Source: a virus
Lineage: Duplodnaviria > Heunggongvirae > Uroviricota > Caudoviricetes
Virus record (IMG/VR): IMGVR_UViG_3300025896_000021
Strand: one strand, 5' to 3'
Length of the DNA: 64,000 bases
Position numbers and translations under genes: made by a program. The notes beneath the pieces are model-generated. The model saw only the letters and a list, made by a program, of their open reading frames with translations. It made no database searches and was not told the origin of the DNA. This document shows, one piece after another, positions 18,667 to 64,000 of this stretch; the first letter of the stretch is position 1; every line of letters starts with the position of its first letter.

Positions 18667-19049
18667 TGAGATCCTTTGAATTTATCATAGAATCCGCACA
18701 GCGTGTAGGGCCCGTCTATCACGGGACAAGTGGTTCCTTTACTAATTTTAATGATGCTACATTGGGAACCAGTACAGGTGATCCCAACACAGTGTTAGGA
18801 CATTTTTTTACTTCCTCAAAAGAAGAAGCACTACTGTATGGTAAAAATATCATCGCTGCTCAATTAGTACTGCGCAATCCATACGAAGCTACTATGGATG
18901 AGTTGGTTGGTTTGGATGAAGAAGATTATCAAACAATGCGTGAAGAACTGATAGGAGATGGATACGACAGTATTATTGCTCCGCATGATGAAGGTGATGG
19001 CGTGTGGTATGTTGCATTCTCTGATAATCAAATTAAAATAATACAATAA
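18666..19049 (+). CDS. Putative ADP-ribosyltransferase-fold protein (ART-PolyVal-like) with capsid-targeting-like N-terminus
   Basis: Start at ATG 18666, MRSFEFIIES; 'VYHGT..F..F', 'GHFFT...A..YG', 'GYDSII', 'YVAF..NQIK'. Confidence 0.55.
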   Translation: MRSFEFIIESAQRVGPVYHGTSGSFTNFNDATLGTSTGDPNTVLGHFFTSSKEEALLYGKNIIAAQLVLRNPYEATMDELVGLDEEDYQTMREELIGDGYDSIIAPHDEGDGVWYVAFSDNQIKIIQ

Positions 19050-45596: not shown

Positions 45597-46394
45597 ATGG
45601 ACCATTATAATACTCTTGGTGTAGCTAGAAACGCTTCACCTGACGAAATCAAAAAAGCATATCGAAGACTAGCAGCTATTCATCACCCGGACAAAGGTGG
45701 TGATACTGCTATGTTTCAACAGATTCAAGCAGCTTACGAAACACTAAGCGACCCCCAAAAGAAACAAGAATACGAACAACCGCAGCAGGGTTTCCCGGGC
45801 GGCTTTCCAGGCGGAGGCTTTAGCTTTCATCACGGTGGAGTTGATATTAATGATATCATCGGGCAGATGTTTGGTGGTGGAAGACAAAATCCATTTCAAC
45901 AACATTTCCAACAAACTTATAAAACAACTATTTGGGTATCGCTAGAACAAGTTTTCACTGGTGGCGAACAAATGCTACAAATGCAAGGACCAAATGGAAT
46001 ACAAGTAGTGAAGATTGAGATTCCAAAAGGAGTAGAAAACGGTGCGCAACTACGATTTGATAACTTGATTCCAAATGGAATACTTATGGTTGAATTTAGA
46101 GTGCATGTGCATCCCGTATACGAACGTCAAGGTAGCCACTTGTTGTGCCAACATCGCATTAGTGTGTTAGACTTGATTGTCGGAACCAAGTTCTCATTCA
46201 CTACTATATCTGGGAAAACATTCGAAGTTGATGTTAAACCAGGAACACAACCTGATAGTACATTACGCATCGCCGGACAAGGTTTACCTACTCAGAATGG
46301 CTACGGTGACCAATTGATATTGATTAAACCGTTTATTCCTGATAAAATAGACAAAAGCATAACTGACAGTATTTTACAACACAAAACTTCATAA
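45597..46394 (+). CDS. dnaJ: DnaJ/CbpA-like J-domain co-chaperone (no Zn finger)
   Basis: 'HYNTLGV..NAS.DEIKKAYRRLA..HHPDKGGD', G/F-rich linker, C-terminal substrate domain. Confidence 0.95.
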   Translation: MDHYNTLGVARNASPDEIKKAYRRLAAIHHPDKGGDTAMFQQIQAAYETLSDPQKKQEYEQPQQGFPGGFPGGGFSFHHGGVDINDIIGQMFGGGRQNPFQQHFQQTYKTTIWVSLEQVFTGGEQMLQMQGPNGIQVVKIEIPKGVENGAQLRFDNLIPNGILMVEFRVHVHPVYERQGSHLLCQHRISVLDLIVGTKFSFTTISGKTFEVDVKPGTQPDSTLRIAGQGLPTQNGYGDQLILIKPFIPDKIDKSITDSILQHKTS

Positions 46395-46403
46395 GGAAAC
46401 ATA

Positions 46404-48677
46404 GTGCATTCACCCGAAATTGAATCAATCATCGAACAAGCAGTAGGTTTGGCGAAAGTTCGCAATCATCAGTATTGCACCGTCGAGCACTTGTTGCTTG
46501 CATTAATTAATTATGTACCATTCAAGAAATGTATAGTTGGTCACGGTATTGACACTGAATCTATGAACAAAGACATAACTGCATATTTGGATAGCTTAAC
46601 AGCTATTACAGTAGATGTAGAGCCCGGTCAAGAAGTTCAACCTCGTAAGACCAACAGCTTAGAACGTGTGATGAATCGAAGCGTAACTCAAGTATTGTTC
46701 ACTGGTCGCAAAGTTGTGACTACGATTGACTTGTACCTGAGTATTAGCGCAGAAACAAATAGTCACGCGCATTACTTTATGCTTAAGTATGGCTTTGTGA
46801 AGAACGAATTTGTTCCTTACTGGCAGAAAAACTACAAGAGTGACCACAAAGAAGTCAAGATGACAGATGAGCAAGCTGATGAGATTCTTGAAGAATTTAC
46901 TATCAACATGACTCAATTGGCTAAGCTAGACAAACTTGAGCCAGTCATCGGTCGTACTAAAGAAATTGATGATATCGTTAACGTTCTGGCAAAACGATTC
47001 AAAAGCAATGTATTGATGGTTGGTGATCCTGGCGTGGGAAAAACTGCGATTGCAGAAGGTCTCGCACAGATGATTGTCAACAAAGAAGTACCTGACTTTT
47101 TGTTAGATCACGAATTGTATAGTCTTGAAATCGGTTCATTGCTTGCAGGTAGTAAGTATCGTGGTGACTTTGAAGAAAAGGTCAAAGACGTACTAGAAGC
47201 ATTGGCTGCAAAAGAAAATGCTATTCTGTTCATTGACGAAGCACATACCATGCGTAGTGCAGGCGGCTCCAGCAATGGAAGTGTTGACTTTGCTAACATG
47301 ATCAAGCCTGCGATTACTAAAGGCACACTGAAAGTTATTGCTAGTACTACATGGGAAGAATTCTACGAAAGTTTCGAGAAGGATCGTGCATTGATGCGCC
47401 GATTCTATCGTGTTAGTATTGATGAACCAAGTCCAGAGTCTACTGTTCGAATTCTCAAAGGATTGAGTGCAAGATTGAGCGATTTCCACAGTGTTGAAAT
47501 CACCGACGAAGCAATCAATGCAAGCGTAGAAGGTGCAACTCGTTACATTCAAGATCGTAAGAACCCTGACAAATCTATTGACTTGCTAGACGCAGCTTGT
47601 GCTAAACAACGTGTGTTGGAAAACAAAGGTGCTGTCATCACTAAGGAACTAGTGTTTGAGCAAATTGAAAAGTACACTGGAGTTCCTGCTGACAAGTTGA
47701 CAGATGATACTTCTGATAGAATTCAAAATCTAGAAACTAATGTTAAAGATAAATTGTACGGACAAGAGGAAACGGTTGATAAAGTACTTGAACGTATCTA
47801 TGTGTCATTCGCGGGTATCGGTAATCAAACTAAACCTCTAGCAAGTTTCTTGTTCTTAGGACCAACTGGTACAGGTAAGACCGAACTAGCTAAACAACTT
47901 AGTAAGAACTTGGACATGAAATTGCTCAAGTACGATATGAGTGAATACAGTGAAAAGTTTAACGTCAGCGGCTTGCTAGGCGCACCTCCTGGTTATGTAG
48001 GCTTCGGTGAAGGAAACTTAGGCGGCGGCAGACTTATCAATGACTTGAGTAAGCACCCTCACTCTATCTTGTTGTTTGATGAAGTTGAAAAAGCTCACCC
48101 TGATATCTTTAACGTATTCTTGCAATTGTTAGACGAAGGTCGTGTTACTGGTACAAACGGTAAAGAAGTGAATGCTAAAAACTGTATCATTATTATGACT
48201 AGCAACTTAGGTTCTAGTGATAGCGAACGTAGCAACATTGGCTTCGGTAGTCAAGAACGTATCGGTGATGATGACAAAGCATTGAAAGAATTCTTCAAGC
48301 CAGAATTCAGGAATCGTATTGACCTGATTACTAAGTTTGGTAAGCTAGACATACTAGCAATTAAAAAAATCGTTATTAAGTTTACCGATGACTTGAAGAA
48401 ATCTCTTAAGGAAGTGCATGACATTACATTGAATCTTAGTGAGCCAGTAGTAGATTATCTAGCTGACAAGGGATATGATCCTAAAATGGGCGCACGTCCT
48501 TTAGCTCGTAAAATTGATGAACTAGTACGCATCCCATTAAGTAAGAAGATTCTGTTTGAACGTATTAAAAACACCACAATTACTGCTAATATGAATGGAG
48601 ATGAAATACGTTTTGACATAGCACAGAAACTAAACGTAGGGGTAGATAGTAATGGTTTCATCAACGTCATTAGTTAA
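46404..48677 (+). CDS. clpA: ClpA-type Hsp100 AAA+ unfoldase
   Basis: Clp N-domain; two NBDs ([16 protein letters not shown]); 'GAPPGYVG'; ClpP-docking 'IGF' loop; no ClpB middle domain. Confidence 0.92.
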
Positions 48678-49392: not shown

Positions 49393-49560
49393 ATGGCAAA
49401 GATTGTCGAAACCGTATTCGTAGTTAAACTAAGTCAATTAGTAAGAGATAACCCAACAGATGTAGAGTCTACTGGGTTTGACGACCTTCCCAAGACTATT
49501 GAGGAAGTAGTGCAGCAATTAGTTGCAGGTGATGTTATTGTCGAAGTGGACAGAGCATAA
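49393..49560 (+). CDS. Small hypothetical protein (55 aa, MAKIVETVFVVKLSQL...)
   Basis: Translated by hand; GATAAATA 49361-49368 and GGAG RBS; TAATG coupling to next gene. Confidence 0.75.
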   Translation: MAKIVETVFVVKLSQLVRDNPTDVESTGFDDLPKTIEEVVQQLVAGDVIVEVDRA

Positions 49561-49916
49561 TGAGCCAAGCAACTGCACTAACACTGTTACCGCAAACTCT
49601 TGCGTTAACAACTGGTACAAAGCAGCCTGCAGCTTGCTATTATGTATCCGGTAAAACATTACAAACACTTACCTGGAGGCTTTCAGCTTTCTTAGGTACC
49701 GTTGTTGTTCAAGCTACATTAGTTGATGATCCAACCGACGACAGTGATTGGTTCGCAGTATACAACTTAGTTTGTACAGTTGGCAACGGCAATGGTGGAA
49801 CGTCATTATCCCCTAAAATTGGTTACATGAATATCAATGGCAACTTTGCTTGGCTACGAGCTAATGTCATTTCATACACCTCTGGCACAGTGGATTATTT
49901 GAAGGTGTGTTACTAA
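49560..49916 (+). CDS. Hypothetical, probably virion, protein
   Basis: 118 aa beta-rich. Confidence 0.6.
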   Translation: MSQATALTLLPQTLALTTGTKQPAACYYVSGKTLQTLTWRLSAFLGTVVVQATLVDDPTDDSDWFAVYNLVCTVGNGNGGTSLSPKIGYMNINGNFAWLRANVISYTSGTVDYLKVCY

Positions 49917-49917
49917 A

Positions 49918-51534
49918 ATGGCTACTATTGTTGTATACGGCGGAGGCTTTCAGCCATTTCATGAAGGTCATTTGAGTAGCTACTTACAAGCTAAGAAGGC
50001 ATTTCCTGGTGCAACTTTCTACGTAGCAGCAAGCAACGATGTTAAACAGCGTCCGATTCCTTTCAAAGACAAACAGTTTTTAGCACAGCAAGCCGGTGTA
50101 GTTGATCCATTCGTTGAAACTAAGAACCCAATCAATCCTCAAGAAATTCTTGCTCAGTATGATCCTGAGAAAGATGTTTATATCATGGTTCGTAGTGAGC
50201 GTGATCCAGTGGGATATACTAGAAAAGACGGAACACCTGCATACTATCAACCGTATGTTAAAGGTCAACCAATGGCTCCGTTCAGTAAGCATGGTTATGT
50301 ATTTGTTACTAAGAAACACAACTTCACCGTTGATGGTCAAGAAGTATTCTCTGGCTCACAAGTTCGTAGTATGTATGGTTCAGCGGATGATGCTGGTAGA
50401 ATGCAGATCATTCAACAACTATATCCTAAGAGCAAACAACAACAAATGATTAAATCATTGCTAGACAAGTATCTAACAAGTCCACAGGAACCTGCAGCTA
50501 TGCCAGTCAAACCTAACGCCATCAATAAACTAAAGAACAAGGCACTAGCCGAACAAATTCAAAAGATTCGTCCTTTGTTAAAAGAAGCTAGTCCGGCAAT
50601 GAAATTGAAGTTCATGAAGTTGATGAAAACTGCGCTAAGTGAAAACAAAGAGACTGACTATTCAGATCCTGCATGGGACGAGAAAGTCGCTAGCGTAGGT
50701 CAAAAGGCTAAACAAGCGCAAGCATTAAAAGCAAAAGGTAAAGAACCACAGACACGTTGGAATCCTGTTACTAAGAAGTACTATGTAGACTTTAGTGACC
50801 GTGATGAAAAAGGTGTGGCGGAAGGCTGGAAGGGCGCGGCGCTCGGCGGAGCATTGGGATATCATTTTGGAAATCACTATGCAGCAATGTTAGGTGCGAC
50901 TCTCGGTCATTTAGTAGGAGAATTTGTTAGTAAAATTGGAAAATCTATTAGTAAAGATAACAAATTAGTAAATGATAATATAGATGTTATAAATAAGGTA
51001 ACTTCTGAAATTATTAAGTCTAGCCCAACTGATAAATTTGGTTTTCCTATGTTTAGTGCTAACGTCGGTATCGGGGCATATATAGGTACTGTACTACAAC
51101 AAGAGATCACAACTAGAATAGAAGATTCGTTAATTGAAAAATACGGTAAAGAAATTGCTTACGGAATAGTGAAATCCAATGTAATGTATCAACTAAGTTC
51201 AGAGGTAGGGTCAAAATTGTACGAGTATGTTGTTAAACTTGACAAGTCATACAAGAATTCTACAATAGATCGTAAAGAGCCAACATTTGAGCAGCAAGGT
51301 GTGGCGGAGGGCGCTCCAATTGTAGTAGCACAAGCTCCTATTCATATTCGCAATCCTAAAAAGGCTCAACCTAAACAAAGATACATGGGAGACATTGTTC
51401 CACCAACAAAACCACCAAGCACAGAGAAGCGTGGCGTCAAAGGTCGTCCGGGACAAAGACCAATGCCTACTTATGACGAAGATGTAGCTGAAAGCAATAT
51501 CTCCGAATCCACTGATTATCTAGAAGAAAAATAA
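49918..51534 (+). CDS. HxGH nucleotidyltransferase (cytidylyltransferase-like) domain fused to a modular low-complexity tail
   Basis: 'YGGGFQPFHEGH', 'SGSQVR'; tail with LAE/LKE/LSE/VAE sites and a glycine-zipper module. Confidence 0.7.
   Translation: MATIVVYGGGFQPFHEGHLSSYLQAKKAFPGATFYVAASNDVKQRPIPFKDKQFLAQQAGVVDPFVETKNPINPQEILAQYDPEKDVYIMVRSERDPVGYTRKDGTPAYYQPYVKGQPMAPFSKHGYVFVTKKHNFTVDGQEVFSGSQVRSMYGSADDAGRMQIIQQLYPKSKQQQMIKSLLDKYLTSPQEPAAMPVKPNAINKLKNKALAEQIQKIRPLLKEASPAMKLKFMKLMKTALSENKETDYSDPAWDEKVASVGQKAKQAQALKAKGKEPQTRWNPVTKKYYVDFSDRDEKGVAEGWKGAALGGALGYHFGNHYAAMLGATLGHLVGEFVSKIGKSISKDNKLVNDNIDVINKVTSEIIKSSPTDKFGFPMFSANVGIGAYIGTVLQQEITTRIEDSLIEKYGKEIAYGIVKSNVMYQLSSEVGSKLYEYVVKLDKSYKNSTIDRKEPTFEQQGVAEGAPIVVAQAPIHIRNPKKAQPKQRYMGDIVPPTKPPSTEKRGVKGRPGQRPMPTYDEDVAESNISESTDYLEEK
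50810..50822 (+). repeat. AAGGTGTGGCGGA copy 1
   Basis: Identical to 51296-51308 and 56165-56177; encodes (K)GVAE. Confidence 0.9.
51296..51308 (+). repeat. AAGGTGTGGCGGA copy 2
   Basis: Encodes (Q)GVAE. Confidence 0.9.
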
Positions 51535-51584
51535 TTCGGGGTCTTCGATTTGATGTAAATAATTACATCAATTAAGAGGACCTT

Positions 51585-52487
51585 ATGGCAACAAAGAAAA
51601 AAACCGAATTAGTAGCACCTGTAACAAAGGCAGCTCCTGTAAAAGCAACTAAAGCTACGAAAGAACCAAAGACAGTTCCTGTAGAAAAGATTCAAGAAAT
51701 TGCTGAACAAGCTGCTGCTGAACAAGTTGAGAAAAAAGAAGGACAAGTTCAAGTTAACGTTGACTTTCTAAAGACAACTAAAGTTCATATCGCAATGCCA
51801 TGCTATGGTGGTATGCTAACAGAATCTACATTCATGAGTTTTATCAAGTGGGCTAACACAGCCCGTCAACTTGGTATTGATTGGACATTGGAAACAATGG
51901 TCAATGAATCACTCATCTCCCGCGCACGTAATACACTAACTGCTAAATTCTTAGAGCAAGCTGACTCAACTCACTTGTTCTTTGTTGACGCAGACATTGG
52001 TTGGGAGCCATGGCACTTGTTAGTGTTGTTGAATCGTGACGTTGACGTTATCGGTGGACTATACCCAATGAAGACTATGCCAATCAAGTGGGTAGTTAAT
52101 GGATTTGACGGTGCAGAAGAAGGACCAGATGGCTTCCAAGAAGTCTCTAAAACAGGTACTGGATTCTTGCTAATGAAACGTCACGTGTTTGAAAAACTAA
52201 AGGTTCACCCTGCTGTCAAACAATACAAGAACGATATCGGACTTGATCCAAAGTACGATGCACACTTGAAAACATACTTTGACACAGCAGTTCGTCAGGG
52301 TCGTTATTACAGTGAAGACTGGACATTCTGTGAAAACTGGCGTGATCTAGGCGGTAAAGTGTATGTCGATAAGCGTGTATTATTGCGTCACAGTGGCAGT
52401 TATGTATTCTGTATGGAAAATCAGAATCACTTGTTGAACACAATCGGACCTATGTACGTTGAGGAACAAGCTAAAAAGCAACAATAA
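51585..52487 (+). CDS. GT-A fold glycosyltransferase-like protein with Lys/Ala-rich N-tail
   Basis: 'IAMPCYGG', 'LISRARN', 'HLFFVDADIGW', 'GTGFLLMKR', 'SEDWTFC'. Confidence 0.8.
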   Translation: MATKKKTELVAPVTKAAPVKATKATKEPKTVPVEKIQEIAEQAAAEQVEKKEGQVQVNVDFLKTTKVHIAMPCYGGMLTESTFMSFIKWANTARQLGIDWTLETMVNESLISRARNTLTAKFLEQADSTHLFFVDADIGWEPWHLLVLLNRDVDVIGGLYPMKTMPIKWVVNGFDGAEEGPDGFQEVSKTGTGFLLMKRHVFEKLKVHPAVKQYKNDIGLDPKYDAHLKTYFDTAVRQGRYYSEDWTFCENWRDLGGKVYVDKRVLLRHSGSYVFCMENQNHLLNTIGPMYVEEQAKKQQ

Positions 52488-52508
52488 TTAGCATTTAACG
52501 CTAATACG

Positions 52509-52541
52509 ATGGCTATCATGGAAACGTGATAGCCATTTTTT
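52509..52541 (+). terminator. Rho-independent terminator
   Basis: atggctatca(t/c)g-gaaa-cgtgatagccat followed by a T-tract. Confidence 0.85.
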
Positions 52542-52554
52542 GTATAAATACAAT

Positions 52555-53631
52555 ATGCAATTTAAAGAATTAGATAAATTTAAGCTGGATGATGCCATCC
52601 ACTTCCATGACCACTTGAACCCAGCAGTGTTCAAAGGTGATCATTTGAGAGATGATGTACGCAAAAAATTGTTACTTATTGCAGAAGATTTCGTTGAACA
52701 TTTAGGAATCAACGACATAGACATAGCGGACATTACTATTTCAGGTAGTAATGCAGCATACACATACACTGCGCACAGCGACATTGACCTACACATTTTA
52801 GTAGATATAAAGAGTTTTGAAGACGATGATGTATACCGTGAACTGTTTGACGCAAAAAAGACGGTATATAACGAACAACACGACATTAAGATTAACGGAT
52901 ATGAAGTTGAAGTATATGTACAGGATAGTGATGAGCCTGTAATTAGTCTGGGTGAATACTCAGTAATGAACAACAAGTGGATCAAATTGCCTAGAAAGCG
53001 CAAAGCTGACTTTGATCAAATGGCTACTAAACTAAAGTACCGTAAATTATACAGATTAGCTAAGTACGCACTACAAGCGAAAACACCAGATAAGATTCAA
53101 AATGTATTGAAGACATTAAAGAAGTACAGACAAGCAGGATTAGATTCACTGGGTGAATTCAGTCCTGAAAATTTAGCATTCAAAGCATTACGTAGCAAGG
53201 GTGTTATTCAGAAACTATACGACAAGTTGAATGACTTGCATAGCGAAACATTGAGTATTCCTGAGAGTGAAAACTTAGATAAGCGTACACTAAATGTTGA
53301 TGACCTGGCAAGAAAACATCGTGTATCGAAAGATTATCTATTAGATCAATTAATGAAGGGCATCGGTATTGAGTCCGAGCATACTAGTAATTTTGATATT
53401 GCAGCAGAGATTGCATTAGATCATTTAGGTGAGAATCCAAACTACTATGAGCTACTTAAAAAAGCTAGCTTAGAAGAATGCGGTTATATTCCTAGTGAAA
53501 GCGAAAGAAATGATCCAAGATTTAAAACAGCACTAACAGTTGATATCACTCCAAATTCAATCAAAGATAATGCTAGAAGATTAGGAAGCAATATACAACG
53601 TGACGGACGACCACCGTTGCTACGACCATAA
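52555..53631 (+). CDS. Pol-beta-superfamily nucleotidyltransferase fused to a DUF5661-like domain
   Basis: 'ISGSNA.Y.Y..HSDIDLHIL'; 'KGIGIESEHT...IALDHL.ENPNYY'; start at ATG 52555, 4 nt after TATAAATA (52543-52550). Confidence 0.75.
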   Translation: MQFKELDKFKLDDAIHFHDHLNPAVFKGDHLRDDVRKKLLLIAEDFVEHLGINDIDIADITISGSNAAYTYTAHSDIDLHILVDIKSFEDDDVYRELFDAKKTVYNEQHDIKINGYEVEVYVQDSDEPVISLGEYSVMNNKWIKLPRKRKADFDQMATKLKYRKLYRLAKYALQAKTPDKIQNVLKTLKKYRQAGLDSLGEFSPENLAFKALRSKGVIQKLYDKLNDLHSETLSIPESENLDKRTLNVDDLARKHRVSKDYLLDQLMKGIGIESEHTSNFDIAAEIALDHLGENPNYYELLKKASLEECGYIPSESERNDPRFKTALTVDITPNSIKDNARRLGSNIQRDGRPPLLRP

Positions 53632-53643
53632 TAAGGAAAATAA

Positions 53644-55434
53644 ATGTCAGCACCTATTAAGACCCCACCATCAGTTAACACTCTGCAAGACCCTGCACTA
53701 GAATATTTAATGCAGCGTGAAATTCAAGTTGCACTAACACCTATTGAAAATGTCACTAAAAATGTAGTATTAGAGCAAGTAACTCAGGTGGTAACTCAAG
53801 TTATCCAAATAAATGCTCCGCAAGGTGCGAACGGTTCAATCCAGTTTAATCAAAACGGTAGCTATGTTGGAGACACCGGTCTACAGTTTGAGCCCACTAC
53901 GGATACGTTGACTACTGGTACTGTTATCGCTAACTCTATTACAATCAATAATAGTTTGAAATTAAGTGGTGGAGTTAATAGAAACTTTCTGACAACTGAC
54001 GGTAACGGTAATACTTCATGGGCTGATGTTCTTCCCTCTAGAGTTGGTAACAGTGGTAAGTTCTTAGTTACAAATGGTGTTTCTGACGCCTGGAGCACAG
54101 TAAGCTACAGTACACTCGCAACCCAGACTGATGTAGCAAATGCTATAGATACCTTAGTTGGTACTGCCCCTGGTATTCTAGACACACTAGCTGAAATAGC
54201 CAATGTGATCGGTGCTACTGACAATCCGGAGTTCAGTATTATTTCTCAACTAGCTAACAAAGCAAACATCACTAGTTTAGCAGATGTTGCATTTAGTGGC
54301 CTGTATAGCGATTTATCTAATTTACCTACTATATCTACTGCTGGCCGTACTGGCAACTATGAAGACGTGCGCAACAAACCAACTATCCCCACTTCTATCG
54401 CTGACTTTGGTATTAGCGACGGGACAGTAGGTCAAGTGCTGACCGCATACGGAAATGGTACTTATCATTTCACTACAGTGAATAGTGGTTCGTCTACTGG
54501 AAATATCACTTTTACTGACAACACCATGACTGGTACCGGTGATGTAAAGATTCACTTCACTCCTAGCGCAAGCCCAGCAGTAGAATTTAATTTTGCTAGT
54601 AGCGGTACGCTAACAGTTCCTGGAAGTATAGTATTACAAGACGGTGTTATAACTGGCAATGACAATACTGATCCTGGTATTGTGTTAGGCTCGTCAGACA
54701 AATCTGTGTTTGTCCGCACACTAGGTGGCGTTGACAACTATACATGGAAGTTTGGTACTGATGGTGCATTAACACTCCCTAGCGACGGTAAGATTGCCTC
54801 TGGCATAGATACACCTCAGGTTGGTTCTACGAAGACTATTGCTACTGACAGTGAAGGTGGTACTGGGGCAGGTACTCCTGGAGTAGTAGATATACCATGG
54901 GATGGCACTATCATCAACACCTATCCAGCGGGTAGTACAATCACTTTCGCTAACGGTGATGTAAGAACTATCACAAGTATTGCTCAGGGTAATGTTGGCT
55001 TATACCTTGATATCTCATATTCCGGCGCCGCAACCACCAGCAGTCCAGAATTTCCAATCATATTAAAGACTGCTAACTATGCCGCGGCAATAACAGCACC
55101 AGAATGGACGTTTGGCAATAATGGCACACTAACTGTTCCTGATTCTATTACTAGAAATGACCGTTTAACATTAGTCAGTAGCGGAGCAGCATCAAGTAAT
55201 GTTGCATCTGTTATTGCTGACGGAGAAGCAGGTAGAGTATTTGTAAGAACCCTCGATGGTACAACATTACAGACTTGGGAATTTAACAAAGAAGGTAATT
55301 TAATGCTACCAAATGGTGGCGACATTGTTGACAGCGCAGGTATATCTCAGTTTATTAGTATAACATCATTAAAAACATTAGTGGCAGCTAGCACTGACTT
55401 TGCTGACTTCCAAACAAGAATTGCTGCACTGTAA
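53644..55434 (+). CDS. Tail fibre/spike-like protein
   Basis: Four '(W/F).F..(D/S/N/E)G.L..P' repeats, 'L.TDG.G..SW' motif, Thr/Gly-rich. Confidence 0.65.
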   Translation: MSAPIKTPPSVNTLQDPALEYLMQREIQVALTPIENVTKNVVLEQVTQVVTQVIQINAPQGANGSIQFNQNGSYVGDTGLQFEPTTDTLTTGTVIANSITINNSLKLSGGVNRNFLTTDGNGNTSWADVLPSRVGNSGKFLVTNGVSDAWSTVSYSTLATQTDVANAIDTLVGTAPGILDTLAEIANVIGATDNPEFSIISQLANKANITSLADVAFSGLYSDLSNLPTISTAGRTGNYEDVRNKPTIPTSIADFGISDGTVGQVLTAYGNGTYHFTTVNSGSSTGNITFTDNTMTGTGDVKIHFTPSASPAVEFNFASSGTLTVPGSIVLQDGVITGNDNTDPGIVLGSSDKSVFVRTLGGVDNYTWKFGTDGALTLPSDGKIASGIDTPQVGSTKTIATDSEGGTGAGTPGVVDIPWDGTIINTYPAGSTITFANGDVRTITSIAQGNVGLYLDISYSGAATTSSPEFPIILKTANYAAAITAPEWTFGNNGTLTVPDSITRNDRLTLVSSGAASSNVASVIADGEAGRVFVRTLDGTTLQTWEFNKEGNLMLPNGGDIVDSAGISQFISITSLKTLVAASTDFADFQTRIAAL

Positions 55435-55473
55435 TAGATGTTTTGATAAATATATTATAAACGGAATTTATCT

Positions 55474-56403
55474 ATGAAAATCAGTAATTTAACAGAAACA
55501 ATGGCTACCCCAGTGTCAATGCCATCACCGGGACAACCGGGCGCAAAGTTTGGTCGTAGCGATGAAATGCTAGAATCAGGTGTAGGAACTAGCACTGCAG
55601 GCGGTATGGCACCTAGTGCAAAACCAATGGGCAAGATGCAAAGACGTGGGCAAGGCAGCATGTTTCAAGGTATCAAGACTAGCAGCAAGTTTGCGAACAG
55701 TGCAAAGGCTGGTATTAAAGAAGATACAGTTAATGAAGACGAATTGAGCGAAGAACAACTACAAGCTAAACAAAAGCGTGAAGATATATTCAACCGTGCA
55801 AAAGATAAAGAATTAGGTAACAAGCCTAAATCAAAAGATATTATTGCTAAAGAAGCAACTGGTCGTGGAACATGGGATAGTAACGCAAGTGACTACGAAG
55901 GTGATTATGGTGGTTCACGCAATTGGGGGCGTAGAGAAAGAGAAGATGACGAGCATCATCACATTGACAGAGCCCGTGAAAAACAAGAACAATCCGGCAC
56001 ATGGTATGTTGCTATCAACGGTAAAGTTGTAAAAGATAAAGCTGGTCAACCTTACACATTCTATGGTAAAGCAGCAGCAAACAAAGCAGCATTAACTATG
56101 CAAGCTAAACCGTTCAATTCAGGAAAGCAATTTATGCTTACTACAAATCCTAATCCACCTGAGCAAGGTGTGGCGGAAGTAGCACCTCCTGGAGCTAAAG
56201 CTGAACGCATGGTAAAGCACATTAAAAAGGGTTATGCTAAAGACGGCAAACTAACTCCTAAAGAAAAATCAATTGCTTATGCCACTACATGGAAAGCACA
56301 TAATGCCGGTAAAGTAGAAGAAGATTGCTGGGATGGTTACGAGCAAATCGGCATGAAGAAAAAAGGTGGCAAGACAGTGCCTAACTGTGTACCAAAGAAG
56401 TAA
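55474..56403 (+). CDS. Modular basic protein, putative internal head polyprotein
   Basis: MKISNLTE; GATAAATA 55445-55452; segments ending in E, including QGVAE; C-terminal 'CWDGY..GMKKKGGK.VPNCVP'. Confidence 0.55.
   Translation: MKISNLTETMATPVSMPSPGQPGAKFGRSDEMLESGVGTSTAGGMAPSAKPMGKMQRRGQGSMFQGIKTSSKFANSAKAGIKEDTVNEDELSEEQLQAKQKREDIFNRAKDKELGNKPKSKDIIAKEATGRGTWDSNASDYEGDYGGSRNWGRREREDDEHHHIDRAREKQEQSGTWYVAINGKVVKDKAGQPYTFYGKAAANKAALTMQAKPFNSGKQFMLTTNPNPPEQGVAEVAPPGAKAERMVKHIKKGYAKDGKLTPKEKSIAYATTWKAHNAGKVEEDCWDGYEQIGMKKKGGKTVPNCVPKK
56165..56177 (+). repeat. AAGGTGTGGCGGA copy 3
   Basis: Encodes (Q)GVAE in ORF 55474. Confidence 0.9.
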
Positions 56404-56405
56404 TT

Positions 56406-56714
56406 ATGAAACTCAACGAATTAATCACTGAATCCATTGATGTAAAAGAAGTTGCTGCTTGGCAAAAGAAGTCAGGTAAGAATAAGACCGGTGGATTGAA
56501 TCAAAAGGGTGTTGACTCATATCGTAGAGAACATCCTGGTAGTAAACTACAAACAGCAGTTACTACTAAGCCTTCAAAATTAAAAGCAGGCAGTAAAGAC
56601 GCAAAGCGTAGAAAAAGTTTCTGCGCTAGAATGAGTGGCATGGAAGGTCCAATGAAGGATGAACATGGTGAACCAACTCGCAAAGCATTATCATTAAAGA
56701 AGTGGAACTGTTAA
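56406..56714 (+). CDS. DUF6321-like basic protein with capsid-targeting-like N-terminus
   Basis: MKLNELITES; 'AWQKKSGKN..GGLN.KG', 'RRKSFCARM', 'KW.C'. Confidence 0.65.
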   Translation: MKLNELITESIDVKEVAAWQKKSGKNKTGGLNQKGVDSYRREHPGSKLQTAVTTKPSKLKAGSKDAKRRKSFCARMSGMEGPMKDEHGEPTRKALSLKKWNC

Positions 56715-56715
56715 T

Positions 56716-58119
56716 ATGAATTTTCAAGAATTATACGAAGGCACAACGCCTAAACTACCCGGCGCCCCACAAGGCGTAAAAGTTATGTCTATGGATCAAT
56801 TCGTTGGTCAAGCTGGACAATCTCAAGAACAACCTGAAGAAGAAGTTGCAGAAGAAGTAGACATGGGTCAAGCTGAAAAGCGCACACCACCAAAAGATAG
56901 CCGTGAAGATGACGATAGAGTTTTTAACGCCTTCAGAGAAAGACTGCGAAAACTAAAAGGTGAAGACTTAGACGAAGCTACTGCACTACCGGCACAACAA
57001 CGTGAATTAGGTTCTCAAGAATTTCAAGACTACATGGGTCGTATCAAAGGAACCGATGATATTGATAAAAAGACCGGCGAGATTAAAGTAAACAAAAAAG
57101 GTGTGCAGCAGTATACTACTGGTAAGACTAAGACAGACAAGTATAAGATGCCATATGTTCACCGTAGTAGTGCTATTGAGTATTATGATGAAGGTGGAAA
57201 GAGATACAAAGAAGAAGCTGTTATTGCTGCATTGCAACAACGTCCTAAGAAGTTGTTAAAGCAAAATGAAAAGATGAAACATAGCAACGGAGAGTTTGAA
57301 CAATTCTTTAACGTTGGTTTTGCAGCATTAACTGGTATCGCAGTTGATGAATCTACTGGTAAACTTATTGTAGTTAACACATGCCCAGGTGCTGGTTCAT
57401 GTAAAGTTGACTGTTTCGCTATGAAGGGCGGCAAAGTACAATTCAAAGCTGCTTGGTTAAGCGATGGTCGTATTCTAACTTATCTATTGAATGATCCAAC
57501 CGGTTTCTTCAAACAGTTAAGTGCAGAGATTGCTAAAGAAGAACGAGATGGCGCAAAAGGATCAAAGGGATTTGAAGGTGGATGGAGAGTGACAGTTCGT
57601 TGGCACGATGCTGGTGACTTCTTCTCACCAGAATACTTAGACATGGCATTGAAGATGGCTGCTGCTCACCCTAATGTTAAATTCTACGCTTATACCAAAA
57701 TGGCAGGTGCTGCAATGGCACAAAAGCCTGACAACTTCATTATTAACTGGAGTGAAGGCGCAAGTTCTGGTCAAGAGAAACAAGTTAAAGCTCAAGACCC
57801 TAACTTAGAGACAACTAAGAACAGTCGTATTGTTCCAGAGAAGTTATTCTATGACTTGTTAGCTAAAGATGAGAAGGGTAACTTAGTTAAGACCGCTGAT
57901 GGTGCATGGCAACCTGCTAGCCCAGAAGCACTACAGCAAATGAAGCAACGTATTGGTCAGGCGTACAGTATCAGCCCATCAAGTATTCTAAGCTACAATG
58001 AATATACTTCAAAGCCTAAAGTTGCTGGCATGAAGTATAATGTTATCGTTGCTCCGGGTGAGGGAGATGTTTCTGCCAACGATCCTAATGTACTAAGTAC
58101 ATTACTATTAAGGCATTAA
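56716..58119 (+). CDS. Phage Gp88-like (putative Fe-S) domain protein with N-terminal charged modules
   Basis: 'TCPGAGSCKVDCFA' (CX5CX3C), 'VRWHDAGDFFS', 'FYAYTK'. Confidence 0.6.
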   Translation: MNFQELYEGTTPKLPGAPQGVKVMSMDQFVGQAGQSQEQPEEEVAEEVDMGQAEKRTPPKDSREDDDRVFNAFRERLRKLKGEDLDEATALPAQQRELGSQEFQDYMGRIKGTDDIDKKTGEIKVNKKGVQQYTTGKTKTDKYKMPYVHRSSAIEYYDEGGKRYKEEAVIAALQQRPKKLLKQNEKMKHSNGEFEQFFNVGFAALTGIAVDESTGKLIVVNTCPGAGSCKVDCFAMKGGKVQFKAAWLSDGRILTYLLNDPTGFFKQLSAEIAKEERDGAKGSKGFEGGWRVTVRWHDAGDFFSPEYLDMALKMAAAHPNVKFYAYTKMAGAAMAQKPDNFIINWSEGASSGQEKQVKAQDPNLETTKNSRIVPEKLFYDLLAKDEKGNLVKTADGAWQPASPEALQQMKQRIGQAYSISPSSILSYNEYTSKPKVAGMKYNVIVAPGEGDVSANDPNVLSTLLLRH

Positions 58120-58120
58120 A

Positions 58121-58561
58121 ATGTTATCTGACAACTTAAAGACATTACTGGCTTCAACTGAATTGTTCTCGTTGAAGTCTCGTAACTTTCATTGGAATAT
58201 TGAAGGTAGTAACTTCCCGCAATATCATGAATTCTATGACAACCTGTACAACGATTCATATGCGACTATAGATAGAATTGCAGAGTATATCAGGGTGTTA
58301 GATGCATATGCTCCTGCAAGTTTAACTCGCTATGCTGAGTTGTCAATCATTCAAGATCAAATAAAGATTCCACGTGCAGAACTAATGTTTGCTGAATCAT
58401 TAGTGGACTGTCAAAAAATGATCGTATTAGTAATAGAGATATTTGATGTTGCCTCTGCTGAACGTCAGCAGGGCATTGCAAACTTCATGGCAGAACTACA
58501 AGACTTCTATGGTAAGAAATCATGGATGATTCGCTCTATCTTAAAGAAAGATAGAGAGTAA
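58121..58561 (+). CDS. dps: Dps / DNA-binding mini-ferritin
   Basis: 'NFHWNIEGSNF..YHE.Y..LY...DRIAEYIR'. Confidence 0.9.
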   Translation: MLSDNLKTLLASTELFSLKSRNFHWNIEGSNFPQYHEFYDNLYNDSYATIDRIAEYIRVLDAYAPASLTRYAELSIIQDQIKIPRAELMFAESLVDCQKMIVLVIEIFDVASAERQQGIANFMAELQDFYGKKSWMIRSILKKDRE

Positions 58562-59181
58562 TGAGAGCAATTGAATTCATCACAGAAACTGAATCATATC
58601 AACCACCTGAATTAAGTGTTGGTGATAAGATACTTAAAGGTAAATTTAAGAATAGCCCAGCAGAGATTAAAGGCTTCACTAAAGACAAGCACAATCAACC
58701 TGTGTTAAAAACTAACAAAGGTGAAGTACAGTTGTTCAAGCCTCGTGTTGCTAAGTTGATGAAAGAGGTAGAACTAACAGAACTATTCGCCCCTGACAAA
58801 GATTGGAAATGGGATTATAACAGTCCAACTGAATCTGAAGCAACATTTGTAATAGGTGATATACAGTACAAATTCTATGCGTATTCATCACAACCCGGAA
58901 CTTGGGAAGTAGAGTTTAAGATAGTAGAAGGTGGTGACCCAGGTAATAGATTTGGTGTTACTGGTACAGGTAATGCTGCACAAGTTATGTCTACTGTTAC
59001 TGATATCCTACGAGCCTTCCTAGAGAAACATAAAGGGCAGATATCTAAGTTGATATTTTCTGCCAAGGAATCATCACGACAAGCACTATATGCTAAAATG
59101 GCAAAACGCCTATTGCCTAATTGGAATTTAGAACATTTTAAGAGTGAGTTTTCACTAACTGCACCTGAGGTAACTAAATGA
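58561..59181 (+). CDS. Two-module hypothetical protein with capsid-targeting-like N-terminus
   Basis: MRAIEFITE; modules separated by MKE/LTE; 'GVTGTGNA..V.STV'. Confidence 0.6.
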   Translation: MRAIEFITETESYQPPELSVGDKILKGKFKNSPAEIKGFTKDKHNQPVLKTNKGEVQLFKPRVAKLMKEVELTELFAPDKDWKWDYNSPTESEATFVIGDIQYKFYAYSSQPGTWEVEFKIVEGGDPGNRFGVTGTGNAAQVMSTVTDILRAFLEKHKGQISKLIFSAKESSRQALYAKMAKRLLPNWNLEHFKSEFSLTAPEVTK

Positions 59182-59945
59182 GAGCAACCGAATTTATCAA
59201 CGAGGAAATAAACCCGGATATTCTTGATTCACGCTTTAGTCACAAGCAAAAGATTGGTGCATATACATATACCGCTGCACTGGAACCCGATAGATTCCAC
59301 AAAGCAGATTTGTTTGTTATTAGATGCTATAACCGTACTAAAATGATCGGACAAGCTAAATTCTACACAACATTCGGTGACTCACTAGTAAGCGCACTAA
59401 CAACAGTACAGCCAGAGTATCAACAATCAGGTATCGCAAGTACAATGTATGCTTATGCTAGAATGCTAGGCAACACGATAGAACCTAGTGCTTCACAATT
59501 GCCACCTGGTAAGAAGATGTGGAAAGCGTGGAAGAAGTCAGGTGAAGCTAAACACTTGATGAAAGAAGACGCAAGTTCTACTACTCTAGCGCAATTATAC
59601 AACGGAAACTATCCAGATCGTGACGAAACATTCTGGGACTATGTTAGTCCGCATGAATTTAATACACCACTAACTATTCAAACATTGGCAAGGCATAAAG
59701 TAATGATTACATTGCTTGGTCAGTATCGTGCAGAACATATTGACGATGTAGTAGATATGTTAGATGATGACAGAAAAGAACTAGTACAATCATATGTAGA
59801 TGATCCTGCACTATCAAGTAAAGTCATTGTGCTTTCAGGAGATAGAATCATTGATGGGAATCATCGTGCATTAGCTGCTGCAATCAAAGGTGTACCTATC
59901 AATTATGTTGACGTAGCTGATTTAGAAGACTCTGAAGAAAGCTAA
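59178..59945 (+). CDS. GNAT-like acetyltransferase plus ParB/Srx-like domain, capsid-targeting-like N-terminus
   Basis: MRATEFINE; 'VQPEYQQSGIASTMY'; 'IIDGNHRALAA'. Confidence 0.65.
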   Translation: MRATEFINEEINPDILDSRFSHKQKIGAYTYTAALEPDRFHKADLFVIRCYNRTKMIGQAKFYTTFGDSLVSALTTVQPEYQQSGIASTMYAYARMLGNTIEPSASQLPPGKKMWKAWKKSGEAKHLMKEDASSTTLAQLYNGNYPDRDETFWDYVSPHEFNTPLTIQTLARHKVMITLLGQYRAEHIDDVVDMLDDDRKELVQSYVDDPALSSKVIVLSGDRIIDGNHRALAAAIKGVPINYVDVADLEDSEES

Positions 59946-60850: not shown

Positions 60851-61435
60851 ATGCGCTATAATGAATTTATCTTTGAATCCGCTGCTACTGAGTTAGCAGA
60901 CAAACTCCCGTCACTAAAAAAGCACGATTACAGTACAATTGACAAATTGATGAAGCGAATCAGTGCAAGACATGATATTGACGGTAAGAAATTGCATGAT
61001 ATGTTTGTTAGCAAGTACGGTCACACTCCTGATACGTGGGTGAAAAAGATCAAAAACAGAATGGACGAATCAGTAGACAATACTGAAAACTTAGACCAAA
61101 TCAGAGACTTTGTTCAATGGGCAATCAAAACATTAAACGTTCAAAAACCTTATCCAAAGATCAAGTTAAGCACTGATACTAAAGACGCACAAGTCAATCA
61201 TCGTACTGGTATGCACACAGACGATGGCCACATATTAGTCTATATCAAAAATCGCAATTTAGTAGATATTTTTCGTACATTGTTCCACGAACTTGTGCAT
61301 GAGAGACAAGATCAATTGAACATGATTGGTCCCGATGATAGTTACCCCGGTTCACCCATCGAAGCGATGGCAGATATGATGGCAGGGAAGTATATTAAGA
61401 TATACGGCAAAGAACATCCCGAAATATTCCAATAA
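60851..61435 (+). CDS. HExxH zinc-metallopeptidase-like domain with capsid-targeting-like N-terminus
   Basis: MRYNEFIFES; 'FRTLFHELVHERQ' and downstream 'E..AD'; GATAAATA 60839-60846. Confidence 0.7.
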   Translation: MRYNEFIFESAATELADKLPSLKKHDYSTIDKLMKRISARHDIDGKKLHDMFVSKYGHTPDTWVKKIKNRMDESVDNTENLDQIRDFVQWAIKTLNVQKPYPKIKLSTDTKDAQVNHRTGMHTDDGHILVYIKNRNLVDIFRTLFHELVHERQDQLNMIGPDDSYPGSPIEAMADMMAGKYIKIYGKEHPEIFQ

Positions 61436-61448
61436 TAAGAAAGAACCA

Positions 61449-62888
61449 ATGGCAAATTATAACTCAATAAAAAACGCGGCATTAATCGCCCCAACAACTA
61501 ACCCTGATTTGGGGTCAGCTAGTAACAGATATGGAAATGTCTATTTAAGTGGTAATGTTAACATTGCTGGAACTAGTATTACTAGTACTAATGCACTTAC
61601 TCCTAAAGTATCAAGCATTGGCTACATCGGGGACGATACTGCGGCAGACATTGCCGGTGGACAGACAATTACATTGAATGGATCTGGATTTGTATTCGGT
61701 GCTAGTGTGCTAATAGGTGGAACGGTAGTAGGGGTAGTAACATTTATTAGCAGTAATCAATTAACACTCACTAGTCCGGCAATGAGTGCTGGTAGTTATG
61801 TTATATATGTCATCAATCCAGATGGTGGCACTGCAATGTCACTACCTGGAATTCAATATTCAGGTACTCCTTCTTGGACTACTACTGCCGGCGCATTAAC
61901 CGGTGTAGTAGCTTCAGCAAGTGTAAGTATAACATTAGCTGCGACCGGAGATGCGCCGGTCACCTACAGTTTATATTCAGGTACATTACCAAGTGGCGTA
62001 ACACTAAACAGTGCAACCGGTGCATTATCAGGTACTGCTCCAGCAGTTACTAATTCTACATTATATAGCTTTACGATTCGTGCTACTGACGCACAGAAAC
62101 AAGATACTAATCGTAGCTTTAGTCTAACTGTAGCTGCTTCTGTTACAATAGAATATCTTGTAATTGGTAAAGGTGGAGATGGTAGTTGGGGCGGTGGCGG
62201 CGCTGGCGGATTTATTTCAGGTACAGCTACTGTTGCTCCGGGAGACACTAGAGTTATCACATTTAATAATGCTGCTTCATACTCGGGCGGCAAGGTGATA
62301 TTTGGATCATTAGTTGCAATAAATGGTGGCGATGAGGGACAGGCTGGCGGATCGGGCGGTGGTGGGTCTATTAATCAAGGATCTACTCCGACAGGAGCTC
62401 CAAAAGCATCAGGTCTCATAGGTGGAGCAGCACTGCAACCTGCATCTGCGTCGGGCGGTTTAGGATATGCGGGCGCAGACGCGCCGGTCGCAAATAGTTC
62501 TACTAAAGGGGGAGGAGGAGGCGGCGGCGCAGGTGGCCCAGCCGAGGTTCGATATACTTGGAGCTCCAATAGCGGTGGCGCCGGAGGTGCCGGAGTAACA
62601 TCTAACATTACCGGAGTAACCATTTCATACGCGGGCGGGGGCGGCGGCGGCCAGACTGGTGCAACCCCGGCAGGTGGTGGTGGTGCCTCATATGGCGGTG
62701 GCGGCTCAATGACCGTATACAATCCGCAGTATACCGGCGGCCCGGGTGTTGTTGTAATAGCATATCCATCAAGTACTCCAGCGATTACAACCATTCCTGG
62801 TACACTTACGTATGCAGTAGATACTACTACTAGAACAGGGTACCGAGTATATACATTTACTGCTGGTACCGGCACAATAACATTCTAA
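61449..62888 (+). CDS. IPT/TIG plus putative-Ig plus glycine-rich domain virion fibre protein
   Basis: 'GGQTITLNGSGF', 'VINPDGG', 'SGTLPSGVTLN', GGGGGAGG runs, 'G..GVVVIAYP'. Confidence 0.75.
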   Translation: MANYNSIKNAALIAPTTNPDLGSASNRYGNVYLSGNVNIAGTSITSTNALTPKVSSIGYIGDDTAADIAGGQTITLNGSGFVFGASVLIGGTVVGVVTFISSNQLTLTSPAMSAGSYVIYVINPDGGTAMSLPGIQYSGTPSWTTTAGALTGVVASASVSITLAATGDAPVTYSLYSGTLPSGVTLNSATGALSGTAPAVTNSTLYSFTIRATDAQKQDTNRSFSLTVAASVTIEYLVIGKGGDGSWGGGGAGGFISGTATVAPGDTRVITFNNAASYSGGKVIFGSLVAINGGDEGQAGGSGGGGSINQGSTPTGAPKASGLIGGAALQPASASGGLGYAGADAPVANSSTKGGGGGGGAGGPAEVRYTWSSNSGGAGGAGVTSNITGVTISYAGGGGGGQTGATPAGGGGASYGGGGSMTVYNPQYTGGPGVVVIAYPSSTPAITTIPGTLTYAVDTTTRTGYRVYTFTAGTGTITF

Positions 62889-62898
62889 GAAATAAAAC

Positions 62899-64000
62899 AT
62901 GGCAAATTATAACTCAATCAAAAACGCGGCATTAATAGCTCCGACAACTAACCCCGACCTTGGTAGTGCAACTAACAGATATGGAAATGTCTATCTTAGT
63001 GGTAATGTAAACATTGCGGGAACTAGTCTAACTAGTACTAATGCTCTCGCTCCTAGAATTACATCTATTAATTATATAGGTGATGACACTGCGGCAGACA
63101 TTGCAGGAGGTCAAACTATTACATTAAGTGGATCTGGATATCAAACCGGAGCAACTGTTTTAATAAACGGTACTCCTGTTTCATTAGTTACATTTGTAAA
63201 CAGTACTACACTAACCTTTACTAGTCCTGCGATGAGTGCAGGTGGATATGTCGTGTATGTTATTAACCCTGACGGAGGCACTGCACTTAGTGTACCGGGT
63301 ATACAATACTCAGGTGTACCAGCATGGACAACTAGTGCAGGTAGTTTAGCTAGTGTTGTTAAATCTTCTAGCGTAAATATAACTGTAGCTGCGACAGGAG
63401 ATGCACCTGTAACTTATAGTGTAACTTCAGGTGCATTACCTAGTGGAGTAACATTGAATGCTAGCACTGGTTTTATATCAGGAACTGCTCCTACAGTAAC
63501 AAACTCATCAACATATAATTTTACAATTAGTGCAATTGACGCACAGAAGCAGGATACTGCTAGAAACTTTAGTTTAACAGTAATTCCTAGCAATGCCCCT
63601 GCTACTGTAGAATACTTAGTGGTTGCTGGTGGTGGAGGTGGTGGTGGCATCGGTGGTGGAGGTGGCGCCGGGGGCTACTTGACTGCAACGAGCTATTCAA
63701 TAACACCGTCTACGCCTATTACAGTCACTGTAGGTGCTGGTGGCGCAGCCTCAACTGACTCATATGCAGTAAATGGTGGTAACGGTGGCGCCTCAGTATT
63801 TGGAACAATTACTAGTACGGGTGGTGGTGGTGGCGCAGCAGGATCAGGCGGAGCACCAGTTATACAAGCAGGATCAGGCGGTTCAGGTGGCGGCGGCGCT
63901 GGTGTAGCATTTGGCGGTAATGGTACAGGTGGCGCCGGAATTGCAGGTCAAGGTTATGCAGGTGGAACTTCAACTGCATATGGGCGTGGTGGTGGCGGTG
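62899..64000 (+). CDS. Paralog of 61449 ORF, partial (runs off window end)
   Basis: Translated by hand; near-identical N-terminus MANYNSIKNAALIAPTTNPDLGSA and the same domain order. Confidence 0.85.
   Translation, partial: MANYNSIKNAALIAPTTNPDLGSATNRYGNVYLSGNVNIAGTSLTSTNALAPRITSINYIGDDTAADIAGGQTITLSGSGYQTGATVLINGTPVSLVTFVNSTTLTFTSPAMSAGGYVVYVINPDGGTALSVPGIQYSGVPAWTTSAGSLASVVKSSSVNITVAATGDAPVTYSVTSGALPSGVTLNASTGFISGTAPTVTNSSTYNFTISAIDAQKQDTARNFSLTVIPSNAPATVEYLVVAGGGGGGGIGGGGGAGGYLTATSYSITPSTPITVTVGAGGAASTDSYAVNGGNGGASVFGTITSTGGGGGAAGSGGAPVIQAGSGGSGGGGAGVAFGGNGTGGAGIAGQGYAGGTSTAYGRGGGG

Follow-up and report, generated by a model that had tools for sequence, protein, structure and literature searches.

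A short DNA word, repeated in frame at the joints between unrelated protein modules, was found in a 64-kb (64,000-nucleotide) stretch of DNA from a tailed virus of the Caudoviricetes (IMG/VR record IMGVR_UViG_3300025896_000021), hereafter referred to as the window. The word, AAGGTGTGGCGGA, is 13 base pairs (bp) long and occurs in two genes of the window, ORF 49918 and ORF 55474 (open reading frames, ORFs, named by their first position), both of which string several modules together and in both of which it encodes the peptide GVAE. Comparison of the window with related phage DNA shows that the spelling of the word is maintained far past what the peptide or the codon usage would need, and that module exchange between phages has its breakpoints at the word. 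On balance, we think it rather probable that in large T4-like freshwater phages a protease-type linker doubles as a short-homology crossover point for the in-frame exchange of cassettes.

The DNA spelling of the word

The window holds exactly three copies of the word, all on the plus strand (copies 1 to 3; Table 1). No further copy with up to two mismatches was found on either strand of the window, nor was a complementary copy, and an exact match to the word appeared in 0 of 100 dinucleotide-preserving shuffles of the window. An initial annotation of this DNA had described the word as an exact, in-frame sequence at three boundaries between unrelated segments, read as (K/Q)-G-V-A-E, and its positions, its reading frame and the shuffles bear this description out. 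The annotation had also remarked that the codons of the word are unlike those of other V-A-E tripeptides, and this holds for the window as a whole: the ten others encoded in its ORFs use common codons (GTT or GTA with GCA, GCT or GCC), while among all window ORFs GTG makes up 12% of the Val codons, GCG 7% of the Ala codons and GGT 53% of the Gly codons. The same gene arrangement was assembled from other samples, among them a contig that is 99.9% identical to the window over 19.6 kb (L171) and a Logan contig (L172), and ORF 49918 is identical in three further assemblies. Because this arrangement recurs in independent assemblies, the window joints are not an assembly artefact of a single data set.

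Across phages, the word forms the core of a linker of 18-20 nucleotides (nt) with the consensus nAG CAA GGT GTG GCG GAA GGC, which encodes (E/K/Q)-Q-G-V-A-E-G. A 15-mer scan of IMG/VR located the word in at least 120 contigs, many of which have 2-8 copies in the same orientation and a multiple of 3 nt apart. In partial genomes of 167-300 kb, 3-11 copies each were counted, again in a single orientation and grouped in a few genes. Among the matches listed, a long ORF reads through 193 of the 198 distinct word contexts in the GVAE frame.

In an initial set of relatives, retrieved on protein similarity only, each GVAE had the bases of the word. The codons used for GVAE were then counted in a sample gathered independently of the word, i.e., loci fetched by homology to both window proteins, to the C-terminal module of ORF 49918, or by protein identity. 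In this sample, 26 of the 28 distinct GVAE peptides are spelled GGTGTGGCGGA, a spelling for which the codon usage of the same loci predicts 0.6%, and a lone GVAE that lies inside a domain, not at a joint, uses GTT GCA. Counted in relatives against the codon-usage expectation, the word thus stands well above it, and the GVAE codons do not vary freely.

This conservation has sharp borders. In pairs of joints with one homologous flank, just 50-90% of the identical residues of that flank are encoded by identical codons, right up to the word, and identity reaches 97% at the codon immediately 5' of it. This preceding codon is NAA (CAA, AAA or GAA, for Q, K or E) in 27 of 29 cases and the codon after it is GNN (for G, A, V or E) in 29 of 29; since the residues at these places vary and the bases are fixed, it is the base rather than the residue that is kept next to the word. 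Moreover, the wobble bases at -2 (NAG) and +1 (GGC) are preferred contrary to normal codon usage. The peptide is selected as well, because one-base variants of the word at joints are enriched for synonymous changes (51 synonymous versus 29 non-synonymous, with ~28% synonymous expected from random change). Taken together, the 26 of 28 peptides, the sharp island of synonymous conservation and the fixed flanking bases confirm that conservation acts at the level of DNA and not merely of the peptide, as had been suggested from the three window copies.

At the three window joints, local RNA structure does not go beyond that of shuffled sequences (z-scores -0.15 to -1.19), and a search for Rfam families at the word gave two chance-level matches only. 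The word has no dyad symmetry. A reading of AAGGTG as a Shine-Dalgarno-like element that serves the in-frame GTG as an internal start was rejected by eye, given a spacing of zero and an anti-Shine-Dalgarno pairing of 4 bp.

Module exchange at the word

Three orthologs of the ORF 49918 product (P0001), namely P0003, P0004 and P0005, retain its first ~295 residues almost unchanged together with a tail of the form SNxxESTDYLEEK, and between these parts carry one, two or three cassettes, none of which is the glycine-zipper cassette of the window. These cassettes are bounded by GVAE or by the near variants DVAE, GVEE, VMAE and GLAE. The DNA of one related locus (L146) is 83% identical to the window until the left joint; over the cassette the two are unrelated, and from the right joint on their similarity returns. 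The clearest case comes from two further loci (L043 and L123), in which a 153-nt cassette with the word at both ends is 96% identical and the outer flanks are at chance identity. Contigs from other samples tell the same of the window itself, as their similarity to it ends at 50827, 51292 and 56179, which are the three words: at copy 1, a contig from another run follows the window over 50691-50827 before it departs; at copy 2, one from run X3 agrees with the window only from 51292 on; and at copy 3, contigs from run X3 agree with it as far as 56179 and no further. Homology between loci thus starts and stops at the conserved sequence that encodes the motif.

The modules that meet at the word are combined in many ways. 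At least two partners were found for 24 module families on the upstream side and for 23 on the downstream side (211 distinct joints), and only 2 of the 211 joints have both flanks in common with another joint, too few to judge whether old joints retain the word. The C-terminal module of ORF 49918 that begins GAPIVV sits behind the word with 7 different upstream partners, and the module downstream of copy 3 follows the word behind another partner in L123. Orthologs of the ORF 55474 product (P0002) in L022, L024 and L025 have in common the first ~130 residues only and then carry quite different module sets. Across these relatives (P0003-P0005, L146, L148 and the pair L043/L123), a cassette can be there, missing or replaced by another, and the breakpoints lie at the word or at its decayed xVAE forms, which supports the cassette shuffling that the initial annotation had proposed.

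The segment from copy 1 to copy 2 has a period of 486 bp, in frame, and the initial annotation described it accurately. Its GC content is 35.6%, or 32.4% when the opening 60 nt are set aside, whereas the flanks have 40.6% and 43.9%, and ATA accounts for 6 of its 14 Ile codons and for 0 of 16 in the rest of ORF 49918. The cassette opens with a glycine zipper, for which Pfam gives sub-threshold matches to Gly-zipper_Omp and Gly-zipper_YMGG. Its only homolog is part of an unrelated protein (P0006/P0007, locus L148), where it stands between the word and a GVSE variant that is one base off. Between the two cassettes, the conserved glycine zipper has drifted at synonymous sites, and the word is intact in both. 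No further relatives of this cassette were confirmed in viral contigs, and an exhaustive HMMER profile search with it returned only two matches, both of a repetitive, low-complexity type.

The N-terminal head of P0001 is an HxGH nucleotidyltransferase domain (Pfam PF01467, NCBIfam TIGR00125). Orthologs of ORF 49918 are 370-902 residues long and differ in their module sets, which include nucleotidyltransferase, kinase, ParB-like, GNAT and HD modules; ORF 49918 and its orthologs thus combine two or more unrelated domains in one polypeptide, with an architecture that varies among relatives. In distant orthologs (L004-L021), the HxGH nucleotidyltransferase is combined with a P-loop kinase, which recalls the NMN adenylyltransferase and kinase of the NadR type, with weak family matches. 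The 13-residue tail is common to P0003-P0005, P0009, P0011, P0026 and 22 other ORFs. This tail type (...DY[LI][DE]E[K]; window positions 51493-51531) ends those 22 ORFs in related loci, e.g., L030, L036, L043 and L025, whose proteins are otherwise unrelated. A contig from an RNA library covers 51237-51415 and may be DNA carry-over.

Table 1. Positions of the word copies, the two modular genes and the capsid-targeting-like N-termini in the window
Feature	Positions	Strand	Description
Word copy 1	50810-50822	+	K-G-V-A-E, residues 298-302 of ORF 49918; joint between conserved head and glycine-zipper cassette
Word copy 2	51296-51308	+	Q-G-V-A-E, residues 460-464 of ORF 49918; joint between cassette and widely shared C-terminal module
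Word copy 3	56165-56177	+	Q-G-V-A-E, residues 231-235 of ORF 55474
Modular gene, 538 amino acids (P0001)	49918-51534	+	HxGH nucleotidyltransferase head, helical spacer, cassette, shared C-terminal module, short tail
Glycine-zipper cassette	50824-51297	+	Residues 303-460; AT-rich, ATA-rich; other cassettes in its place in orthologs
Shared Pro/Lys/Arg-rich C-terminal module (GAPIVV...RPMPTY)	51310-51483	+	Found in hundreds of differently built proteins
Ordinary-codon joint D-V-A-E (GAT GTA GCT GAA), then 13-residue tail SNISESTDYLEEK	51481-51531	+	
Modular gene, 309 amino acids (P0002)	55474-56403	+	Capsid-targeting-like N-terminus MKISNLTE, variable middle, word, two small modules
Capsid-targeting-like N-terminus MKISNLTE	55474-55497	+	ORF 55474
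Capsid-targeting-like N-terminus MKLNELITE	56406-56432	+	DUF6321 gene; compare T4 IPII/IPIII
Capsid-targeting-like N-terminus MRAIEFITE	58561-58587	+	
Capsid-targeting-like N-terminus MRATEFINE	59178-59204	+	
Capsid-targeting-like N-terminus MRYNEFIFE	60851-60877	+	

Candidate protease site, capsid targeting and gene surroundings

Two word-bearing records (G001 and G004) encode homologs of the T4 head proteins gp21 (PF03420) and gp23 (PF07068) and of a gp22-like scaffold, and a gp21-type protease is also encoded in G007, which has an ortholog of the nucleotidyltransferase gene. The tail sheath of the window is 51-56% identical to the sheaths of G001 and G004; the window itself, at 64 kb, does not extend to the head genes of its genome. 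L-A-E and V-A-E are frequent in the scaffold homolog, and the likely propeptide site of the capsid protein, going by the cleavage site of T4 gp23, is one that we take to be YLKE or YLGE.

In T4, gp21 cuts after Glu and strips the capsid-targeting peptides from the internal proteins IPI, IPII and IPIII and from Alt (Mullaney and Black 1996, as cited in PMC5694885 and PMC3012670). IPII and IPIII begin with MKTYQEFIAE, and a series of window genes have N-termini of a similar kind (Table 1), so that a battery of genes for capsid-targeted internal proteins seems to occupy 55.4 to 61.4 kb. The starts at 56406, 58561, 59178 and 60851 agree well with a targeting sequence of about 10 residues that ends in (L/I)-x-E. 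N-termini of the type M[KR]xxE[FL]IxE are found in 29 of 93 ORFs that carry the word, compared with 119 of the 966 remaining ORFs of the same loci (P = 6e-6), and the more distant orthologs of ORF 49918 begin with MKFRDFITE or MKFSKFLAE. A start of this type is also seen at 18651-19049 when this gene is read from an internal Met.

Cleavage by a prohead protease after ...VAE, before a small residue, is plausible because related phages encode a gp21-type protease and neighboring genes start with T4-like capsid-targeting peptides. The initial annotation had proposed that the word serves both as a recombination site and as a protease site. The exchange breakpoints speak for the first role; for the second, the peptide fits T4-type sites and the group has gp21 homologs, which makes the role a candidate one.

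As to its surroundings, the window belongs to a large myovirus, with a tail sheath of 1200 amino acids and other tail and virion genes, and it further encodes a clamp-loader-like ATPase, PhoH, DnaJ, a ClpB-like ATPase and a ferritin-like protein. The protein-database record of P0001 is on a 359 kb contig, and the sequencing runs that contain window DNA are freshwater and lake metagenomes. A search of cultured phages for DNA nearly identical to positions 49500-57000 gave no match. The cultured cyanophages S-CREM1 and S-RSM4 have the same small modules as ORF 55474, without the word, and one-mismatch matches to it occur there at chance level only. In Synechococcus phage S-CREM1 (OP535465; L175 577-2928), a multi-module protein of 784 residues joins the two C-terminal modules of ORF 55474 without a GVAE word, and its gene adjoins a NadR-like gene.

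Just upstream of the modular genes, at 45597-48677, a DnaJ-like gene lies beside a gene for a ClpB-like double-AAA ATPase of 757 residues, a pair that is kept in L146 and L170. At the far end of the window, the genes at 61449-62888 and 62899-63999 have the same first 24 residues bar one substitution (MANYNSIKNAALIAPTTNPDLGSA...) and then separate; they look like tandem paralogs, possibly for fibre or Ig-like surface proteins (TIG and He_PIG matches).

Proposed mechanism, alternatives and known parallels

In the explanation that we favor, the linker separates small, self-contained protein modules within multi-module genes, and the identical word would act as a short-homology crossover point between co-infecting phages, so that a module with a word at each end could be copied, its frame preserved, into whichever other word-bearing gene a co-infecting phage carries. 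Joints with an intact word would keep exchanging and would found new joints, and mutated joints would freeze and decay (the DVAE joint of L146 may be an example); the spelling would then stay uniform because only intact-word joints keep taking part. With ...V-A-E as a gp21-type prohead protease site, the array would be cut into free modules inside the prohead, and the freed modules would travel with the DNA into the next host, as the T4 internal proteins do.

Several observations weigh against this explanation. Some joints lack the word, as does the left joint of L146, where DVAE is spelled GAT GTT GCC GAA, and one-off joints in metagenomes could be assembly chimeras at the shared word, although independent assemblies again show the window joints and several others. 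Among Logan contigs, neither a joint that skips 50823-51308 nor any excised or empty form was seen, which at the level of contigs cannot count as absence. Modules are also gained by other routes, since L171 (19261-20451), compared with the window gene at 59178-59945, has an extra module of 141 residues after 59569 without a GVAE word, downstream of which the similarity falls to 83%. Moreover, a uniform spelling kept by recombination needs a fast turnover of joints, which the few joints that share both flanks do suggest. As regards processing, the T4 consensus has Leu or Ile at P3 and the word peptide has Val, ORF 49918 begins directly with its enzyme domain and has no capsid-targeting N-terminus, and cleavage, packaging and ejection of the modules are presumed. 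Finally, 13-20 nt is short for efficient homologous recombination, and for this reason a dedicated enzyme or another function at the level of the nucleic acid may be at work.

The word could thus be a nucleic-acid signal for a dedicated factor whose spelling is under direct purifying selection, be it an att-like site of a phage-encoded nuclease or recombinase that catalyses cassette exchange or a signal at the RNA level, for instance a site where an RNA-binding protein binds or cuts, or one that makes translation pause at domain borders. We regard this as unlikely, yet as having a real chance. The sharp synonymous island without hitch-hiking in the flanks would suit such a signal, as would the fixed NAA before and GNN after the word, the wobble bases at -2 and +1 that go against codon usage, and the shortness of the word for general recombination. 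However, a pure site needs no reading frame, and the word keeps to one frame inside long ORFs in all but five of its 198 contexts, with none intergenic or antisense. The excess of synonymous one-base variants shows selection on the peptide too, and local RNA structure, an Rfam family and a complementary copy in the window are missing, as is an identified candidate enzyme.

A whole guild of T4-like freshwater phages might even share a dedicated, enzyme-catalysed and integron-like system of in-frame module exchange with the 18-20 nt word as its att-like site, which we think improbable. If such a system were real, it would allow the phages to renew, in the course of a few infection cycles, the proteins that they package and inject. 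Integron gene cassettes proper, which come with an integrase gene and structured attC sites, do not match what was found here: no integrase was detected near the modular genes, the word is not dyad-symmetric, and the joints fold no better than shuffled controls.

Quite doubtful, too, is a role as protein linker or cleavage site and nothing else, in which the spelling would be inherited passively with recently copied modules and the word would have no part in recombination. The peptide is clearly selected, and some modules, GAPIVV among them, are also rather conserved in their DNA. Against this stand flank codons that are 10-50% diverged at synonymous sites next to a word that is ~95% intact, breakpoints at the word on both sides of cassettes, and a residue before the word that varies (Q, K or E) in codons whose last two bases do not.

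A reading of copies 1 and 2 as the footprint of one foreign-cassette insertion, with a single mobile element of 486 bp between copies (50810 and 51296) of a 13-bp target-site duplication, has direct repeats around a compositionally odd in-frame segment in its favor and is nonetheless very hard to credit, as the word is a general linker of many phages and many modules, found at the unrelated window joint and at hundreds of unrelated joints in over 100 other contigs, orthologs have other cassettes between the equivalent joints, and the segment, translated within the ORF as a glycine-zipper peptide only, has neither terminal inverted repeats nor a transposase or endonuclease gene.

The closest published parallel to the word is found in the toxins CdiA and Rhs, where the homology of different loci has its borders exactly at the sequence that encodes the motif VENN or PxxxxDPxGL, respectively, and where recombination between these motif-coding sequences has been proposed (Poole et al. 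2011, PMC3150448). There, as here, a short conserved peptide-coding sequence delimits variable modules. Those systems, in contrast, swap only a C-terminal toxin with its immunity gene, in bacterial chromosomes, whereas the exchange described here takes place inside one ORF of a lytic-type phage and involves several internal modules, and the motif is also a presumed protease site. Around the modular genes of the window, no paired small genes of the immunity type and no CdiB, Rhs or type VI secretion system (T6SS) context were seen. Stem-loop cassettes with early promoters reportedly shuffle small genes in T4-type phages; they too are short conserved sequences around swappable units and are thought to be crossover points, but they are said to be intergenic and regulatory and to move whole genes, whereas the word is coding and in frame and moves parts of proteins.

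The T4 internal proteins resemble the present system in the gp21-bearing T4-type head module of related records, in N-termini like MKTYQEFIAE, in a peptide that ends in (aliphatic)-x-Glu, and in a highly diverse cargo that has only a short conserved peptide in common (PMC3012670). They differ in that the motif is here internal and repeated, with several modules strung in one gene, that the DNA spelling of the word is fixed across many phages, that ORF 49918 has no targeting peptide, and that cleavage and packaging are only presumed. Polyvalent proteins, which combine many unrelated domains in variable order and are predicted to be packaged and delivered with the DNA (Iyer et al. 2017, PMC5512222), are similar in their variable multi-domain architecture and in the nucleotidyltransferase, kinase, ParB-like, GNAT and HD modules found in orthologs of the window gene. 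Unlike them, the modules described here are mostly very small domains of unknown function (DUFs, such as DUF6321 and DUF5661), and neither a built-in processing peptidase, such as a zincin-like metallopeptidase, nor a MuF-type head anchor was found in the two modular genes of the window. The term "linker" is absent from the main text of PMC5512222, whose passages on cleavage and processing concern built-in metallopeptidase domains.

The ingredients of this system are known, namely T4 capsid targeting and gp21 processing, polyvalent phage proteins, and the motif-bounded cassette exchange of polymorphic toxins. A full-text literature search for GVAE together with phage gave nothing relevant, and in the literature searched no internal, repeated linker was found that delimits in-frame modules in more than 100 phage contigs and keeps one DNA spelling. 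The word can serve as a handle for protease assays, for semi-specific searches of virion proteomes and for recombination tests with a recoded linker, and it may help to engineer T4-like phages that package foreign proteins. Because most of the modules (DUF6321, DUF5661, GAPIVV) have no known function, it also delimits hundreds of candidate independent domains.

If the favored explanation is true, the proteins that these phages deliver to the host would be assembled from a common stock of small modules, each of which could enter any carrier gene in frame, and the carrier would then be cut back into free parts. Such cargo could be found in metagenomes by a simple rule, namely a search for the word. 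Exchange of this kind would amount to evolution akin to exon shuffling in a virus without introns, and it would provide a route for the fast diversification of injected counter-defence proteins.

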